From: Bdellovibrionota bacterium
Lineage (GTDB): Bacteria; Bdellovibrionota_C; UBA2361; JBGSMV01
Direction: 5' to 3'
Length of the DNA stretch: 64,000 bases
Assembly (NCBI GenBank): GCA_041739995.1
Contig: JBGSMV010000033.1
Span: 1 to 64,000 of the forward strand
Positions 2,342-8,994 of the stretch are shown here, piece after piece; positions within the stretch are counted from its first letter, which is position 1, and every line of letters starts with the position of its first letter. Made by a program: the position numbers and the translations under genes. The notes below the pieces were generated by a model, which was given only the letters and a program-made list of their open reading frames with translations, made no database searches and was not told the origin of the DNA.

Positions 2342-3073
2342 CTATCGGAGGTGCGCAAGTAGCATCAAGAGCGCCATGCCCCCCATGCCTAAATCCTCGA
2401 CCAGCGTGACCTTGGTCATTGGAAGCTTGAGCGCCGTGCCAAGGCAGGCGCACTGAATTTTTCGACCAGCGCGCAGTGTGCGCCATACGCCCAGGGCCCC
2501 AAATCCCATCAGAGCAGCGGTAAAAGTATTGGTGGCGACCGGAAAGGCCCCGACGAAGTAGGACACACCAAGGCCAAGCTCAATAAAGGGGTAAACATAG
2601 GCGTAGGTTCTCGAGCGCATGGCGAGCAGGTCATAGGTCGCATAGCCCTCAGCAAATCCAGAGAGATCAATCATCTTGAACAGAGAGAACATAACAAAAA
2701 ATGCGCCCATGAAATTTGCCATGAGCACCGAGGCCGAATAATCGCCCGAAATAGTCGCGCGCAGAAATACACCAGCTAAAAGGTACGCGACGATAACGTA
2801 GAGCGGTCGAAGGCTTTCAGGCGGCTGCGCACCCGTCGCAGCCGAAGCATCAGAATCATTTGCGGCGACTGGTTCAAATGAGTAATCGCCAAGGGCTGCA
2901 AGCTCAGTGTTTAAGGAACTAAGCACTATCGCCGATTCTGCACTCACTCTGGCACGCGGGGGATTCAAGGTGACTGAGACCGACTCAATCTCGGGGTGCC
3001 TCCGCAGTGCCGCCTCGATTTTCCCAACACACGAACTGCAATGCATGCCCTTAACTAGATAGTGCTGAATCAT
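2342..3073 (-). CDS. Heavy-metal-associated (HMA) domain fused to a MauE/DoxX-like membrane domain
   Basis: N-terminal GMHCSSC, about 5 TM helices, YPFIEL and the IQCACLG CxC motif. Confidence 0.85.
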   Translation of the reverse strand: MIQHYLVKGMHCSSCVGKIEAALRRHPEIESVSVTLNPPRARVSAESAIVLSSLNTELAALGDYSFEPVAANDSDASAATGAQPPESLRPLYVIVAYLLAGVFLRATISGDYSASVLMANFMGAFFVMFSLFKMIDLSGFAEGYATYDLLAMRSRTYAYVYPFIELGLGVSYFVGAFPVATNTFTAALMGFGALGVWRTLRAGRKIQCACLGTALKLPMTKVTLVEDLGMGGMALLMLLAHLR

Positions 3074-3102
3074 ATCCGAACCTTCTTGGTGCTGACTTTG
3101 CG

Positions 3103-3366
3103 CTACTCGAAGGAAGAATCGTCCCGTATCGCTGAAAGCACCGCTTTTACCAGGCCTTCAGGCGGCGGCGGTGTATCTTCATCGGTAATGAGCCTCACCA
3201 CATCTATAGAGTTTCGATAGCTTTCTAAAAATGTGTCGCATTCTTTACATGCACAAATATGGCGTTCGAATATGCCGCGCTGCTTCGGATCGAGACTCTC
3301 CTCAAGATAGTCTATGATGAACTGAACAAACTGCTCACAGGACATGTTCAAATCACTACAACTCAT
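3103..3366 (-). CDS. Zinc-binding anti-sigma factor (zf-HC2)
   Basis: C...HICACKEC (HxxxCxxC); ATGA overlap with the ECF sigma gene. Confidence 0.85.
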   Translation of the reverse strand: MSCSDLNMSCEQFVQFIIDYLEESLDPKQRGIFERHICACKECDTFLESYRNSIDVVRLITDEDTPPPPEGLVKAVLSAIRDDSSFE

Positions 3367-3980
3367 GCACCCCTCCTCTGATAGTCCCGTCCGAGCGAGC
3401 GCATAAGCGCCTGACGCGCTCGGTGCAGACGCTGACGCGCGGAGTCATGCGAAATGCCTAAGGTTTCGGCAATCTCAGCGGATCCAAATCCTTCAACATC
3501 CCGAAGCACAAGTACTGCTCGGTAGTCGGCAGGCAAAGCTTCAAGCGCACGCCCCACATCCTGCCGCAACATTACTTCTCGCTCTGGGCTTGGCGCGGGC
3601 ACCGCAAGCGGAGGTTCGGCGTGACCTCCGTCTCCAAGGAATTTTGGCGAGAGACTCTCAATCGATTCCTCGGGTCGCGAGGCCTTGCTGCGAAGTCGCA
3701 TAAGAGCTGCGTTCACGACGATGCGGTGAAGCCAGGTGCTCACCGAAGAGCGTCCATCGAATTTCGCAATGCCTTTGAATGCTGAAATGTAGGCCTCTTG
3801 GACTACCTCCTCGGCATCCGCTCGATTCGACAAGATGCGCTCTGCGAGCATTAGCATACGGCCGATAGTTTGAATCACGAAGGCTTCCTGGGCACGAGCT
3901 TCACCACGCTGAAGAGCAGCGACAAAATCTCGATCATGGAGCGGCTCCCCATTCGTACTCAAGATGTCTTCACTAGTCAT
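3363..3980 (-). CDS. ECF RNA polymerase sigma factor
   Basis: Region 2 DAEEVVQEAY...STWLHRIVVN; region 4 EIAETLGIS...RLHRAR. Confidence 0.92.
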   Translation of the reverse strand: MTSEDILSTNGEPLHDRDFVAALQRGEARAQEAFVIQTIGRMLMLAERILSNRADAEEVVQEAYISAFKGIAKFDGRSSVSTWLHRIVVNAALMRLRSKASRPEESIESLSPKFLGDGGHAEPPLAVPAPSPEREVMLRQDVGRALEALPADYRAVLVLRDVEGFGSAEIAETLGISHDSARQRLHRARQALMRSLGRDYQRRGA

Positions 3981-4061
3981 ACCCTCGCCACAAACAGGTT
4001 ACGTATCTGAAGTGACCATATTTCAAGCCCCCAACAATCCACAACCCCAGTGACCTGCCTT

Positions 4062-4089
4062 AGGTGCGGAGTGGCCCCCCAGTGTGACC
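4062..4089 (-). promoter_or_regulatory. Putative ECF promoter for the sigma operon
   Basis: GGTCACA-N14-CGCACCT; the same motif with the same spacing occurs on the opposite strand at 4123-4150. Confidence 0.6.
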
Positions 4090-4122
4090 CACAGAAAATA
4101 TCAGAGAATTGAGGTCTTCGGC

Positions 4123-4150
4123 TGTCACAGTCAGCGGCCAGAACGCATCT
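4123..4150 (+). promoter_or_regulatory. Putative ECF promoter for the AhpD-like gene
   Basis: TGTCACA-N14-CGCATCT. Confidence 0.6.
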
Positions 4151-4246
4151 GAGCATGCATGCGGGTGGGAAGATGATTGCTTTTTAGAGTGTTCGCTCCC
4201 GCAGTGTGAGTAAACAGACCACGAAAGGAAAGAAAGAGGATTTAAT

Positions 4247-4801
4247 ATGAATAGACTAAATTTAGTAACCCCTGAACAAGCCACCGGAAAGACCAGCGAA
4301 CTGTTTTCGATGGTGAAATCTAAGCTCGGAACGGTGCCCAACATGATGCGCGCATTAGGCAACTCGCCTGCGGCGCTGGAGAGCTATTTGACGTTCTCTG
4401 GTATACTTTCACACGGGACACTCGACGCTAAGGTGCGAGAGCAAATTGCTCTCATAACCGCAGAGGAGAACTCCTGCGAATATTGCTTGGCAGCCCACTC
4501 GCTGCTTGGAAAAAAAGCGGGACTGACTGACGCCCAAGTGTCTTCGGCTCGACGGGGGGAAGGACAAGGGAAAACAGGCGCCGCATTGGCTCTAGCTAGG
4601 GAGATCATCAAAACGCGTGGCGCAGTGTCTAACTCTGGCTTGGAAGCGGCCAGGAGTGCTGGACTGGGTGACGCCGAGATTGCTGAAGTTGTCGCCAATG
4701 TCTCGCTGAACATTTTCACGAACTACTTCAATCAAACGGCTCTACCTGAAGTCGATTTTCCAGCAGCTGCGCCACTAGGCAAGCAGGCCTGCTGCAGTTA
4801 G
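4247..4801 (+). CDS. AhpD / carboxymuconolactone decarboxylase-family peroxidase
   Basis: REQIAL...NSCEYCLAAH motif, NIFTNYFN, C-terminal ACCS; RBS AGAGG upstream. Confidence 0.88.
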   Translation: MNRLNLVTPEQATGKTSELFSMVKSKLGTVPNMMRALGNSPAALESYLTFSGILSHGTLDAKVREQIALITAEENSCEYCLAAHSLLGKKAGLTDAQVSSARRGEGQGKTGAALALAREIIKTRGAVSNSGLEAARSAGLGDAEIAEVVANVSLNIFTNYFNQTALPEVDFPAAAPLGKQACCS

Positions 4802-5007
4802 CAAAAACCACCCCTCTTCACTTACGCTCGCCGAATCCCTGAAGTGTCAGATTTTGCGCGAGCGAGTGAGGGGGGTTCAAAGCACCCCATCACTTGCTCC
4901 AAGCCCAACCCCGACACGCAATACCGTTCTAAAATAATCACTGGCCCTATGCCTCTAACTCAAAGCGTACGACACCGACGCTAGCGGCTGGCCTGTCCCA
5001 AAATATC

Positions 5008-5035
5008 TGTAACAATCTAGCACTCTATGCGACTA
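5008..5035 (+). promoter_or_regulatory. Putative ECF (SigF-like) promoter of the RiPP precursor
   Basis: TGTAACA-N15-CGACTA; a matching motif lies upstream of doxX at 8344. Confidence 0.55.
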
Positions 5036-5159
5036 CAGTGTTGAGTATGAGATTAACCATGGTCGTCTAATGGCCTCCATGGTATCGATTCATGCGGCTC
5101 GCCTAGCTCATGTTGCGCTATGCAGCCCCAAACTAAAGATGATTGGAGAGAAACTCGAT

Positions 5160-5450
5160 ATGAAGCGTTCAATTGCTACCCTATCAGCCGTTGCCGTTGC
5201 CGGCATGCTCATTGGTCTTACGTCCTCGAATGCTTACGCAGACAACCATGCAGACGGTGCCCACGATGGCGACCACAAGACTGCAGATAATGGCTGCAGT
5301 GGAAAAGATGGCTGCAACGGCAAAGACAGCTGTAAGGGCAAAGAAGCCAGCGAAGACAAAGACAGCTGCAAAGCCAAAGACAGCTGCAAAGCCAAAGAGG
5401 GCTGCAAAGCTAAGGATAGCTGCAAGGGTCACGAGGATCACGGGCACTAA
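5160..5450 (+). CDS. Secreted Cys/His-rich repeat peptide; probable MNIO RiPP precursor (96 aa)
   Basis: GGAGAG RBS then ATG at 5160. 27-aa Sec signal ending in AYA. Mature part has 7 Cys in [DEN][SG]C[KSN][GA][KH] units and 6 His. Directly upstream of DUF692. Confidence 0.85.
   Translation: MKRSIATLSAVAVAGMLIGLTSSNAYADNHADGAHDGDHKTADNGCSGKDGCNGKDSCKGKEASEDKDSCKAKDSCKAKEGCKAKDSCKGHEDHGH
5358..5429 (+). repeat. 18-bp coding tandem repeat (AAAGACAGCTGCAAAGCC-like, 4 copies)
   Basis: Encodes KDSCKA KDSCKA KEGCKA KDSCKG. Confidence 0.85.
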
Positions 5451-5569
5451 GTGGTCCGCCGATCTTTAAGTCTTAGAGCGATCACCTTCTGGTGAGATTC
5501 TCTTGGCTTAGAATCACGCTCAGTTTTGGGGTATTTTCGCACTTCAGCGAGCTCACTCAAAATTGATCC

Positions 5570-5602
5570 AAAGGGGAGCTCCTCTCGAGCTCCCCTTTTT
5601 TT
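5570..5602 (+). terminator. Rho-independent terminator between the precursor and DUF692
   Basis: AAAGGGGAGCTC-ctctc-GAGCTCCCCTTT perfect 12-bp stem ending in a T7 run. Confidence 0.8.
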
Positions 5603-5678
5603 GTGCAACAGCTTGAGGCTGCCCTTTAAGGATCGGGCACTTGACTCGCACACACACCCCTCGCATTGTGTAAGGCCT

Positions 5679-6560
5679 ATGCCAGCGTCTCGATTTAACT
5701 CCTTTACAGACTTCGGCGTCGGAATTGGTCTGCGGGTTCCGCACTACACTCATATTCTTGAGAAAAAGCCCACCGTAGACTGGTTCGAGATTATTTCTGA
5801 GAATTTCCTAGTCGATGGCGGGCGCCCTAGAGAGGTTCTCGATCAGATATTAGAGCAGTACCAGGTTGTCATGCATGGGGTCTCCATGTATTTCGGCTCC
5901 CCAGAGAAGCCCAACCGCGACCACCTAAAGCGACTGAAGGCTCTAGTTAAGTTGACCAACACCCCTTGGGTTTCTGATCACCTGTGCTGGGGAAGTGTGG
6001 ATGGCACCTACTCGCACGATCTGCTACCTATCCCGTACACCATCGCAGCAGCTAAAGCCGCCGCAGCAAAGATCCGCTACGTCAGAGACTGTTTAGAGGT
6101 GCCGATAGCGGTTGAGAATCTTAGTAGCTACGCTGAGTTTACTTCTTCCACCATGACCGAGTGGGAATTCCTTAACGAAGTAGTAGAGCGCGCGGACTGT
6201 GGTATTCTCCTAGATGTGAACAACATATACGTGTCCTCTAAGAATCATGGCTTTGACCCTTACTTGTACCTAAACGCAATTCCCCCAGAGCGAGTTTCTC
6301 AGATACACATCGCCGGACATTCTCGTCATGAGCGCTTTATTATCGACACTCACGACCGAGCACCGATTGACCCCGTATGGGCGCTCTACGCTCATGCCAT
6401 AGCGCGCATCGGCAGGACCGCTACTTTGCTCGAGTGGGATGCAAAGATTCCGACGTTTGAAGAAGTTCACTCAGAAGCGAACAAGGCTTCGCGCTGGCTT
6501 GACTCCTCAGCTGCTCCACCACCACGAACTCTCCCTCTTCCATTAGGAGCCCCCACGTGA
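5679..6560 (+). CDS. DUF692-family multinuclear non-heme iron oxidative enzyme (MNIO; BufB/HvfB/MbnB-like)
   Basis: GIGLR, WFEIISENF, HGVSM, VSDHLCW, ENLSSY, LLDVNNIYV, QIHIAGH, IDTHD and LLEWD. Start moved to ATG 5679 because the track extension spans the terminator. Confidence 0.93.
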   Translation: MPASRFNSFTDFGVGIGLRVPHYTHILEKKPTVDWFEIISENFLVDGGRPREVLDQILEQYQVVMHGVSMYFGSPEKPNRDHLKRLKALVKLTNTPWVSDHLCWGSVDGTYSHDLLPIPYTIAAAKAAAAKIRYVRDCLEVPIAVENLSSYAEFTSSTMTEWEFLNEVVERADCGILLDVNNIYVSSKNHGFDPYLYLNAIPPERVSQIHIAGHSRHERFIIDTHDRAPIDPVWALYAHAIARIGRTATLLEWDAKIPTFEEVHSEANKASRWLDSSAAPPPRTLPLPLGAPT

Positions 6561-7432
6561 AGAGCGGTCTTGGAAAAGTAACTTCTACCAAGGAGCTAAA
6601 GGCGCTCCAGCGCGCATTCTTTCAGATAATTACCCGCCCCCTAGGGCGCGAATCGAGCATGAAGAGTGACTCACGCGCTGCTGCCATGGTTCTCCCCTCC
6701 CCGACTCTGAGTCCCCATGAGCGCCTTGAGCTTTATGCCAGGCAATACTGGTGGAGAGTGCTCGACTCTTTGAAAGAAGATTTTCCTGGGGTCCTAGAAT
6801 TTTTAGGAGAAAAACGCTTCTCGGCGCTGCTAGTCCGCTATCTCTCCAAACACCCTTCGACTTCCTTTACGCTCAGAAATCTGGGACGAAAAATGCCTCA
6901 GTTTCTGTTACGCGACAAAACGTTGCCTTTGGGTGTTCGACGCAAAGCTGCCGCTATCGCCAGCGTGGAATGGGCAGAGATTGAAGTCTTTGACGGACCG
7001 TCTTTCGAAGAACTCTCGACTCAAGCGGTGCAGCAACGCCGAGACAAACTACGGCTTACAATCCAGCCCTACGTGCAATTGCTTTCCCTGCCATACACTG
7101 TGGATACCTTCCTCGGGACTTCGAGGACCGTTCCGATGCCAGCAGAGACAAGCAACGTGAGAGGGCGCAAGGAAGTCTCTAAACGAAGTTCAAAACTCAA
7201 GAAAGCGCTCCGCACTCAGAAATGCCACGTCGCGATTTATAGAATTGGAGCTAACATCCGTCTTGCTCGCTTGGACGGAGTTGAGCTGGATCTCTTCCGG
7301 GAACTTCAGAAGGGTGGGAGCCTCGCGCAGATTTTTGGACGGCTTTTAAAGAAACGTAAAAGCCTACCACCGGAAAAAGTTCAGGCTGCGTTTCAGCGCC
7401 TGAGCAGCTTTGGCATGATTGGCATCGAGTGA
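6557..7432 (+). CDS. DUF2063-family MNIO partner protein (BufC/HvfC-like)
   Basis: ERLELYARQYWWRVLDSLKEDFP...F..L...YL..HPSTSFTLRNLG and A.VEWA; GTGA overlap with DUF692. Confidence 0.85.
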   Translation: MKSGLGKVTSTKELKALQRAFFQIITRPLGRESSMKSDSRAAAMVLPSPTLSPHERLELYARQYWWRVLDSLKEDFPGVLEFLGEKRFSALLVRYLSKHPSTSFTLRNLGRKMPQFLLRDKTLPLGVRRKAAAIASVEWAEIEVFDGPSFEELSTQAVQQRRDKLRLTIQPYVQLLSLPYTVDTFLGTSRTVPMPAETSNVRGRKEVSKRSSKLKKALRTQKCHVAIYRIGANIRLARLDGVELDLFRELQKGGSLAQIFGRLLKKRKSLPPEKVQAAFQRLSSFGMIGIE

Positions 7433-7460
7433 GCCTCCGCAGAAGAGGATTGGCTCACCC

Positions 7461-8240
7461 TTAATTCGCGTAGCGATTTGCCTTGCGCCGATGCTGCGGC
7501 TTGATAAAGCTAAAGTCACCTCTCCAGATACGAGGGAATTGAAAGGAGTCTTCTCCTAGCATCTTAAGAAAAGCAGCCACCCGCCCCTCCGGCTGCGGCT
7601 CTTGAGCCCGCGGTTCTGTCGCTCTCAAGTTCTTTTGACTCGAACGCTTCCTCAAATGAGCAACGCCCTCTCCTTCCTTCGCGCGCTCCAGCGCTATGGC
7701 TTCATGAAACTGCCGCAAGCGCCCCTCATTCTCGAGGGAAGATCGCCATTCAAGCAGAGCAAGTTCACGACCTAGGATGTTTTTGCCAAACAAATGCTCA
7801 TGGGAATCCTTGGGAGTGTGTACCGCGATCAGGCGCAGGACGGCTTCTTCTCTGGTTGCCACCGCATCTCTGACCGCCTCAGACACCTCTTTAACGACTT
7901 CGAGATATGGTTTTTGATCGTAGGCAATCCCTCGCCGAACAGCCTCGGCAAGATAACGCGCACCGTCCGTTCCTCGAAGCTCAGTAAAAGCAGCCCAGTC
8001 CGCACGCCAGGCTTCGAGTCCACTATCGGTGACTACTTTAGCCTGAAGAAATTTCTCTCGATTAGCGTACCATTCCAATTGCCGTAAAATCTGAGGATTG
8101 CTCAATTCGTTGAGCGACGGAGCTTCCGGTATCGGGGGAAGAGCTGCCGCACCAGTGGGAACAACCAGCCTTTCCAGTGATTCTCCGACATGCTCCTGAG
8201 GAGGCGGAACGGTCGATTTTCTGTTAGTCGAAGGGTCCAT
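7461..8240 (-). CDS. Hypothetical protein
   Basis: 259-aa ORF filling the gap between DUF2063 and doxX; Pro-rich N-terminus; no recognisable motif. Confidence 0.6.
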   Translation of the reverse strand: MDPSTNRKSTVPPPQEHVGESLERLVVPTGAAALPPIPEAPSLNELSNPQILRQLEWYANREKFLQAKVVTDSGLEAWRADWAAFTELRGTDGARYLAEAVRRGIAYDQKPYLEVVKEVSEAVRDAVATREEAVLRLIAVHTPKDSHEHLFGKNILGRELALLEWRSSLENEGRLRQFHEAIALERAKEGEGVAHLRKRSSQKNLRATEPRAQEPQPEGRVAAFLKMLGEDSFQFPRIWRGDFSFIKPQHRRKANRYAN

Positions 8241-8343
8241 GTGTGGCTACTCTACCGACAGTTCGAACCCTAAACAAACACCCCGGGCGACTCAGCACCT
8301 CCTGACGGCGCCAAAAAAAGCCTGGCCGGGCTTGAATATTGCT

Positions 8344-8372
8344 TGTAACACACCCATAGGGCAGGACGACAA
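8344..8372 (+). promoter_or_regulatory. Putative ECF (SigF-like) promoter of doxX
   Basis: TGTAACA-N16-CGACAA, matching the motif at 5008. Confidence 0.55.
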
Positions 8373-8517
8373 ATGAATAACTCCCGGGATGCGCCCAAAC
8401 CGCCCTCGACCCGAAGAGCGGGCGAGCCCTCCGGCTCTTACCCGCACGGCCTAGCTGTCGGATTGACCACGAGAATGCGAAGATAATTTTTCAGTGAGAA
8501 CTGACGGAGAAACTAAG

Positions 8518-8994
8518 ATGCTAAGAATGATCTGTGACCGCCTTAATGCTGCGCACCAACGAGCCAGCCCCCTTCTGCGCGACCTATTTCTCCTGCTCAT
8601 TCGAGTGCACTGGGGCTATGCGTTCTTTCTCACTGGACTTGGGAAGTTCAAAAATTTCGAGCGCACCAAGGGATTCTTCGAATCACTTAATATTCCGTTC
8701 CCCGAACTCAATGTTTATATGGCCGCCTCCACCGAACTGGTAGGCGGACTACTATTACTGCTGGGCTTGGGCTCCCGCGTGGTACCGCTGCCGCTCATTT
8801 TCACCATGATAGTGGCCTACCTCACGGCGCACACCACAGAGCTTGGCTCACTGCTCTCATATCCAGACATTGACCCCTTTCTCACCGCGCCGCCATTTCT
8901 CTTTCTCCTGACCGCGGTGGTGGTATTCATTTTTGGTCCGGGCAGAATATCGCTTGATGCTTTGGTCTATAAGCACTTATGCAAAAAGCCCTAA
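8518..8994 (+). CDS. DoxX-family membrane protein (BufD-like)
   Basis: LLIR..WG..F..TG.GK, ELVGGLLLLLGL..R and GPGRISLD; GGAG RBS before ATG 8518. Confidence 0.88.
   Translation: MLRMICDRLNAAHQRASPLLRDLFLLLIRVHWGYAFFLTGLGKFKNFERTKGFFESLNIPFPELNVYMAASTELVGGLLLLLGLGSRVVPLPLIFTMIVAYLTAHTTELGSLLSYPDIDPFLTAPPFLFLLTAVVVFIFGPGRISLDALVYKHLCKKP

Follow-up and report, generated by a model that had tools for sequence, protein, structure and literature searches.

The stretch of 64,000 nt analysed here (the window; contig JBGSMV010000033.1 of the Bdellovibrionota bacterium assembly GCA_041739995.1) carries, between positions 5008 and 8994, a peptide-modification cluster in which the gene for a cysteine-rich precursor is followed by an MNIO (DUF692) gene, a DUF2063 gene, an antisense open reading frame (ORF) and a DoxX gene (Table 1). 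This succession, described in an initial annotation, was confirmed by the ORFs together with their Pfam and NCBIfam matches, the published core order being precursor-MNIO-DUF2063(+DoxX) (PMC12452194, available text). Its assignment to the bufferin type also stands, with the MNIO scoring 345 bits on the MNIO_BufB model NF050167 (cut-off 310) and both DUF2063 and DoxX present. The HvfB model gave the same enzyme 251 bits against a cut-off of 360, the HvfC model matched the DUF2063 protein weakly (34 vs cut-off 142 bits), and the DoxX protein, the genome's only DoxX tblastn hit, came to 78 on the HvfX model NF050144 (cut-off 80). Our reading of the cluster as bufferin-type rests on an MNIO that scores above the BufB equivalog cut-off with its invariant site residues intact: H66, H101, E146, D179, N182, H210, D223, H225, E252 and D254 are the same in all 113 aligned MNIOs, and D254 maps to FonB Asp249, the proposed base. 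The His, Glu and Asp residues among them are probable iron ligands, by analogy with MbnB and TglH. By each feature testable on its sequence the cluster is of the captophorin/bufferin (MNIO-PME1) kind, a known kind of system; its enzyme very probably turns cysteines of an exported peptide into copper-binding rings. The precursor itself we interpret as an offshoot of bufferin 2 that has expanded by repeats, is probably unfolded and falls within the published Cys-Lys group.

Table 1 Features of the MNIO cluster, in window positions
Feature	Position	Strand	Details
ECF/SigF-like promoter motif TGTAACA-N15-CGAC	5008..5033	+	about 130 nt before the precursor ATG; putative function
Precursor gene, BufA2-related CK-style hexamer array	5160..5450	+	96 aa; GGAGAG before ATG
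Predicted Sec signal peptide, residues 1-27	5160..5240	+	hydropathy and AYA site; probably also leader for the partner
N-terminal acidic His-rich segment	5241..5288	+	His at 30, 35, 39
Eight six-residue units, seven with Cys and one Cys-less (EASEDK)	5289..5432	+	
C-terminal His-rich tail	5433..5447	+	
Terminator-like hairpin, 12 bp stem and U-run	5570..5602	+	between precursor and MNIO
MNIO (DUF692), BufB-type maturase	5679..6560	+	293 aa; PF05114 354 bits
DUF2063 partner (PME-type 1, BufC-like)	6557..7432	+	291 aa; overlaps MNIO stop; PF09836 61 bits, cut-off 27.2
Family-less ORF	7461..8240	-	259 aa; antisense, between DUF2063 and DoxX; bystander
Second ECF/SigF-like motif TGTAACA-N16-CGAC	8344..8370	+	about 150 nt before DoxX; putative function
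DoxX (BufD/HvfX-like) membrane protein	8518..8994	+	158 aa; PF07681 78 bits

The precursor agrees letter for letter with its first description as a 96-aa peptide with a 27-aa signal, seven Cys and His at both ends (30, 35 and 39; 91, 94 and 96). Its signal peptide, called by eye and by Kyte-Doolittle hydropathy, has a basic N-terminus, 11-residue means of about 2 at starts 5-11 and A-Y-A before residue 28. The Cys lie at positions 46, 52, 58, 70, 76, 82 and 88 (spacings 6,6,12,6,6,6), all in one mod-6 register; when the Cys were placed at random along the mature 69 aa, only 4 of 1,000,000 trials gave such an arrangement. Of the earlier label poly-(xxCKxK), the six-residue register holds, and the strict motif is confined to four of the eight units, with Lys after five of the seven Cys. 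The mature chain of 69 residues has an unmodified monoisotopic mass of 7156 Da and no aromatic or aliphatic residues; AlphaFold2 gave no fold for the precursor (pLDDT, its per-residue confidence, 45.6 from a 56-row alignment, weak evidence alone), and the mature peptide is hydrophilic and probably unfolded. A beta-helix, as modelled for long EGKCG proteins, found no support in this model.

Among Pfam and NCBIfam models there was no real match to the precursor, including PF10048 (DUF2282) at E<=1, HvfA and EGKCG, in agreement with the earlier claim that it differs from DUF2282 and from the HvfA EGKCG repeats; matches to collagen-like and EntB/C models were set aside as low-complexity noise. On the BufA2 model NF050166 it scored 11.8 bits against a cut-off of 60, a cut-off passed by none of 23 proteins, namely the precursor and the 22 homologs found by sequence search (best 40.3, a hybrid), whereas four plasmid BufA2 precursors used as controls scored 88.5-100.1. 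Because these four verified BufA2 peptides space their Cys 6,6,7,6,13, the six-residue register is BufA2's own. In addition, 13 of 106 pattern ORFs were hybrids joining an array to a BufA2-like core, and eleven BufA2-like matches reached 32-66 bits on the BufA2 model, one of them above the cut-off. A search for the BufA2 family in 124 genomes of the phylum gave one weak match and none above the cut-off, at a low sensitivity that also missed the Caulobacter control.

Phylogenetically, the window MNIO falls in a clade with support 100/99 together with array-, hybrid- and BufA2-like-linked MNIOs, both in a careful tree of 40 MNIOs and in a quick tree of 113. That clade forms an unresolved 95/93 group with the BufA2- and DUF2282-linked MNIOs, from which the EGKCG-linked MNIOs stand apart, and its identity to plasmid BufA2-linked MNIOs is 47-51%. 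The references in these trees were six BufA2- and three DUF2282-linked MNIOs, with BufB2, FonB and HvfB themselves not included; the duplicates L003, L102 and L137 and matches below 200 aa were omitted, and precursor labels came from a regular expression with hand correction (five BufA2 loci relabelled, four of them confirmed by hidden Markov model (HMM)). Spacing, hybrids and the shared MNIO clade thus all agree with BufA2 as the closest kin, as had been proposed.

The [DE][GS]CK[GA]K hexamer array occurs at 104 loci in GTDB genomes, found with a degenerate pattern of three Cys in hexamer register that was derived from the query, so that the consensus is partly circular. Verrucomicrobiota account for 74 of these loci, followed by Pseudomonadota (6), Bdellovibrionota (5), Bacteroidota and Myxococcota (4 each), and Ignavibacteriota, Vulcanimicrobiota and Margulisiibacteriota (3 each), with two unassigned. 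An MNIO is present in 73 of the 80 loci with long flanks, at most 300 bp downstream in 62, within 4 kb behind an intervening DoxX gene in eight, and elsewhere in the locus in three; four of the seven loci in which no MNIO was seen end within about 700 bp of the precursor. The other three are stand-alone copies (L045, L078, L111), where about 4-5 kb of flanking sequence shows no MNIO. The number of Cys ranges from 3 to 22 in the 97 precursors with a start found, and 24 of 93 non-hybrid ORFs have six or more Cys that, like those of the window peptide, all share one mod-6 register. A profile of 56 arrays retrieved 159 representatives at E<=1e-10; the 162 proteins retained from the profile search comprise 55 arrays, 18 hybrids, 74 short BufA2-like proteins, 8 others and 7 long ones, the last judged low-complexity noise from their starts and Cys counts. 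In the ESM Atlas the nearest clusters were unnamed, with Verrucomicrobiota as the commonest phylum (0.90, 0.86, 0.86); recognition was below the threshold, so that this serves as a lead only.

The His clusters and the Cys-less spacer, which the initial annotation had presented as distinguishing, were rejected as family traits, since only 2 of 97 named-locus precursors have three or more His. His-rich tails are common in precursors of the host's order and rare in the named-locus homologs. Within that order, 17 of 60 related genomes (L010-L026) carry His-rich precursors with mostly six-residue KCSG[ED]K-type units, whose MNIOs form a separate clade (support 99-100) with His at position 20 and mostly Lys or Asn at 255; two 9-mers of this type had no match in the Gadgil dataset introduced below. 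At Akkermansiaceae-type loci (L046, L057, L060, L084, L092, L098, L101) the order is precursor-DoxX-(about 1 kb unannotated)-MNIO-DUF2063, and L057, which is the same contig as L102, has a precursor copy on each side of the enzyme genes. Signals of the RRxF (Tat-like) type, recognised by eye, open the array precursors of L040, L050, L086, L105, L117 and L123, and two others (L059, L075) have an LSGCA lipobox-like motif.

Arrays of this kind are already present in published data. Dataset S2 of Gadgil et al. 2026 flags hexamer peptides as 'CK-style', with repeats KDGCK, SCKAK and SCKGK, in Lacunisphaera limnophila, Oleiharenicola lentus, Horticoccus luteus and Opitutus sp. GAS368 (PMC13097082). 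They appear there as dataset rows; in the available text of that paper they are neither set out as a subfamily nor tested. The same work counts more than 20,000 captophorins in RefSeq (PMC13097082). Antoine et al. 2025 report hundreds of unclassified precursors with 1-18 Cys, and their table gives Lacunisphaera limnophila an MNIO and a partner and no Buf1, Buf2 or EGKCG precursor; the rows listed from their spreadsheets, which hold accessions, gave no match to the hexamer motifs (PMC12452194, available text). The proposal of a new precursor family is therefore not upheld, given the 104 loci, the CK-style rows and the BufA2 hybrids: the HMM comparison left the precursor below the BufA2 cut-off and without a DUF2282 or HvfA match, yet Dataset S2 lists the same hexamers. 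The alternative wording, a highly variant precursor, is fair, as no HMM recognises it.

The number of repeats varies at this very locus, which was found in four sequencing runs, all hot-spring or biofilm metagenomes from a single study; none of the listed runs containing it is an RNA dataset. The array contains a perfect 18-bp tandem duplication at 5361-5396 that is single-copy in other samples: one 18-bp unit is absent from the contigs of three of the four runs (depth 4-5), and the contig of the fourth extends 7 bases into the second copy, 2 of which differ from the one-copy form. The protein P0002 corresponds to the shorter allele with one unit fewer and probably derives from one of the three contigs, hence it is not independent. 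Because the self-matching stretch of 24 bp is shorter than the 31-mer word size given for Logan, we infer that 6-Cys and 7-Cys alleles exist rather than an assembly collapse. One run's contig also lacks 24 bp at 4884-4907, within the intergenic stretch ahead of the precursor gene.

How the enzyme and its partner may handle such a substrate was approached by structural modelling. The three-chain complex of precursor, MNIO and DUF2063 protein reached 0.77, while none of three controls exceeded 0.00; among reference pairs, 116 of 157 solved ones and 2 of 215 mismatched ones attain the mark, counts that hold only roughly with own alignments. Run agreement was at least 38% and partner pLDDT at least 42. 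In the model, signal residues 4-23 lie on the C-terminal part of the DUF2063 protein, while precursor residues 48-59 (the Cys52 region) reach MNIO residues 222-224 and 254-255 at the active site. The signal peptide thus probably doubles as a leader bound by the partner, a docking that fits the suggestion of Antoine et al. that it is part of the recognition sequence (PMC12452194, available text), whereas HvfA did not need its signal (PMC11252979, available text). The selectivity site, FonB Phe250 or BufB2 Asp251, is Ala255 rather than Asp in the window MNIO, as mapped via 3BWW and EGKCG-linked MNIOs and not by aligning FonB. Among 67 hexamer-array-linked MNIOs this position is Asp in 31, Ala in 17, Glu in 9 and Gly in 8, and Asp occupies it in all 10 hybrid-linked MNIOs and in 4 of the 6 that are BufA2-linked. 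In Cys-Lys MNIOs the Asp has been proposed to read the Lys of Cys-Lys, and FonB F250A and F250D still formed 5-thiooxazole (PMC13097082), so that this site would set selectivity and not chemistry.

The cluster contains candidate regulatory elements. The pattern GTAACA-N15/16-CGAM has just two matches in the window, one before the precursor and one before DoxX, and resembles the Caulobacter sigF motif GTAACC-N16-CGAA, which drives bufferin genes (PMC3511200, available text). The count by itself is weak evidence (expectation 0.29; two matches are reached in 7 of 100 shuffles; a looser pattern has 79 matches in the genome) and the pattern was chosen post hoc, after viewing the site; it is the placement that carries the evidence. 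G034, the closest relative (its MNIO is 78% identical), shares the first ten motif bases ahead of its precursor, behind a sigma-NrsF pair. With a second promoter of its own, DoxX could stay co-regulated despite the intervening antisense ORF. The hairpin between precursor and MNIO has an intergenic z of -4.4 and a single one of 200 shuffles was as stable; across loci of all precursor types, this interval folds at z<=-2 in 87 of 110, as judged by mononucleotide shuffles and without a control set from other intergenic regions. It is consistent with a peptide made in excess over its enzyme.

Building on the genes, families, linkage and repeat variation described above, we infer modification, export, metal and regulation as follows. 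In the precursor the folded frame of BufA2 would have disappeared, leaving BufA2's six-residue Cys-Lys unit repeated in tandem. Under metal or envelope stress an extracytoplasmic function (ECF) sigma factor would transcribe the precursor from the motif at 5008 and DoxX from that at 8344, and the hairpin at 5570 would stop most transcripts, so that the peptide far exceeds the enzyme. In the cytoplasm the DUF2063 partner, as the modelled docking suggests, may grip the signal peptide while the iron enzyme works Cys by Cys, each residue undergoing a four-electron oxidation (-4 Da) to a 5-thiooxazole by the chemistry of BufB1/B2, FonB, HvfB, NgoB and MmrB. Sec export and signal peptidase would then yield a 69-residue chain with up to seven thiooxazoles that sequesters several periplasmic Cu(I) ions; their coordination would probably be loose or intermolecular, as has been suggested for repeat-type fontiphorin, with the His tails as weaker added metal sites and DoxX as an accessory. 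Slipped-strand gain or loss of 18-bp units would change the number of sites. All characterised MNIO-PME1 products carry 5-thiooxazole and generally bind Cu (PMC13097082), and in Buf2 the four central Cys lose 4 Da each and buf2 protects against Cu (bioRxiv 2024.03.18.585515, available text). Overall, we consider it likely that the locus produces a stress-induced, signal-held precursor whose Cys are converted to 5-thiooxazoles and which, once exported by Sec, acts in the periplasm as an unfolded, multivalent sink for Cu(I); the multivalent periplasmic chelator envisaged at the outset is in keeping with this predicted product.

Several observations weigh against this interpretation. The promoter motif is absent in the other five close relatives and occurs in 3 of 58 named loci compared with 23 of 1863 control windows, so that a SigF-like promoter was rejected as a family-wide trait, and neither NrsF nor a clear SigF was found in the host genome (91% complete). 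Ala255 departs from the published Asp logo for Cys-Lys MNIOs, and FonBC left a Cys before a charged residue unprocessed (PMC13097082). The complex model may have passed through likeness to solved MNIO complexes, with an uncertain partner fold and no control in which the MNIO was replaced. As to precedent, the ring structure of Buf2 was inferred from mass and ultraviolet absorption, not solved (PMC12452194, available text), a related modified peptide of Microbulbifer protected E. coli only slightly against Cu and was natively undetected (PMC12538549, available text), and the literature search, which had most subscription papers outside its scope, found no paper describing hexamer-only arrays and no experimental test of such a precursor.

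The same chemistry might serve another job, either as a buffer for soft metals (Ag, Hg, Au) or as a periplasmic redox or oxidative-stress sink acting with DoxX, the His tails adding Ni or Zn. Bufferin-type clusters are indeed known in mercury and gold contexts (PMC12452194, available text), L144 sits among mer genes, the sigF regulon responds to chromate (PMC3511200, available text), the window cluster lies downstream of AhpD-family and HMA-MauE genes, and the four runs come from hot springs or biofilms. However, the members that have been characterised bind Cu or respond to it: bufA2 is induced by Cu and not by Fe, Zn or Mn (bioRxiv 2024.03.18.585515, available text), and bulbicupramide prefers Cu(I) (PMC12538549, available text). 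As the upstream genes are not kept in the six closest relatives and most family members lack His tails, we regard this use as unlikely. Still less probable is that this MNIO clade installs other products, such as Cys-Lys or Cys-Cys cross-links, macrocycles, or modified Cys alternating with disulfides, for which its well-supported separateness and distance from plasmid BufA2-linked MNIOs, the Ala at the selectivity site and the Lys-rich array could be cited, as well as the Cys that remain disulfides in Buf1 and Buf2 (bioRxiv 2024.03.18.585515, available text); against it, the window MNIO exceeds the BufB cut-off, its clade also serves BufA2-like and hybrid precursors, both FonB Phe250 variants kept the chemistry, and the cluster has no extra tailoring enzyme.

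Highly improbable, finally, is an unmodified, metallothionein-like Cys/His chelator beside an MNIO pair that is idle or has another substrate. Unmodified HvfA binds 2-3 Cu weakly (PMC11252979, available text) and the three stand-alone copies lack a nearby MNIO, but each of their genomes carries a linked copy elsewhere (L046, L053, L095), and the MNIO linkage across the loci, the intact enzyme site, the complex model and the lack of any other array-type ORF in the genome speak for the MNIO's action on this peptide. A small chance is left to the idea that hexamer-only arrays are a functionally distinct branch, in which a Verrucomicrobiota-centred MNIO clade reads the leader in the signal peptide and makes something different from bufferin 2. 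This product might carry other ring or cross-link chemistry or be a poly-thiooxazole/His sponge with another metal preference, its capacity tuned by slipped-strand repeat change of an unfolded Cys-Lys polymer. The copper-binding thiooxazole array remains the favoured reading.

A second array-type ORF is absent from the remainder of the host genome (3.8 Mb), which contains one other MNIO (L002, G000:C39:153343-154014), a distant one whose best model match is ChrH (283 vs cut-off 600). This MNIO lies near a contig end, no precursor was seen beside the locus, and downstream of it are a 76-aa ORF and a 198-aa ORF with a signal peptide and without family. The antisense ORF between DUF2063 and DoxX has no Pfam or NCBIfam family and no ESM Atlas match; its homologs, 33-34% identical, occur in 2 of 60 relatives (L149, L150), in unrelated gene contexts on contigs without their MNIO cluster, and the ORF was rejected as a cluster member. 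Upstream, at 2342-4801, the window carries an HMA-MauE gene, a zf-HC2 anti-sigma gene and an ECF sigma gene on the minus strand with a divergent AhpD-family gene, a second HMA-MauE copy being present on contig C48; a TGTCACA...CATC motif near 4124 may be a promoter for this group. An AbiEi/AbiEii type IV toxin-antitoxin pair lies at 135-1792 on the minus strand.

The cluster itself adds little to what is known; its value lies in the precursor subfamily, which is common in Verrucomicrobiota and missed by curated HMMs. Joined to BufA2 by natural hybrids, this subfamily places the folded 6-Cys bufferin at one end of a continuum and repeat-type chelators at the other. In addition, so regular a substrate suits questions on the charged residue after Cys in Cys-Lys MNIOs, on processivity along repeats and on the signal peptide as leader.

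Among known systems, bufferin 2 of Caulobacter vibrioides (BufA2/BufB2/BufC2; Buf_6/12Cys; NF050166/NF050167) shares with the window cluster the gene order, the Sec signal, the DUF2063 partner, a BufB-class MNIO above cut-off, Cys-Lys dyads and the six-residue Cys spacing. The two differ in that the window peptide has seven (or six) Cys at 6,6,12,6,6,6, whereas BufA2 has six at 6,6,7,6,13, and in that it lacks a confident fold and probably the CysI-CysVI disulfide frame; the window cluster also has His tails, DoxX and an MNIO with Ala255 instead of Asp. The CK-style captophorins (PMC13097082) share the DGCK[GA]K / [DE]SCK[GA]K hexamers, the signal peptide and the MNIO-PME1 linkage, while the window copy has His-rich ends and belongs to a different phylum. 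Bufferin 1 (BufA1, DUF2282/PF10048) has the same cluster type with DoxX and a SigF-like promoter motif, but BufA1 itself is folded and has four Cys and two thiooxazoles, and its MNIOs are on their own branch. The 'CxxxxC' precursors (Antoine et al. 2025), from Pseudomonadati only, are defined by a CxxxxC motif and those authors' HMM; the spacing in the window peptide is C-x5-C. The best functional analogy for the array is given by the repeat-type Lys-Cys captophorins (fontiphorin FonABC, oxazolin HvfABC, gonophorin, bulbicupramide), which share export, many short Cys repeats, a variable repeat number and multivalent Cu binding, and differ by five-residue EGKCG repeats with Lys before Cys and by MNIOs of a separate clade with R at 20 and F/Y at 255.

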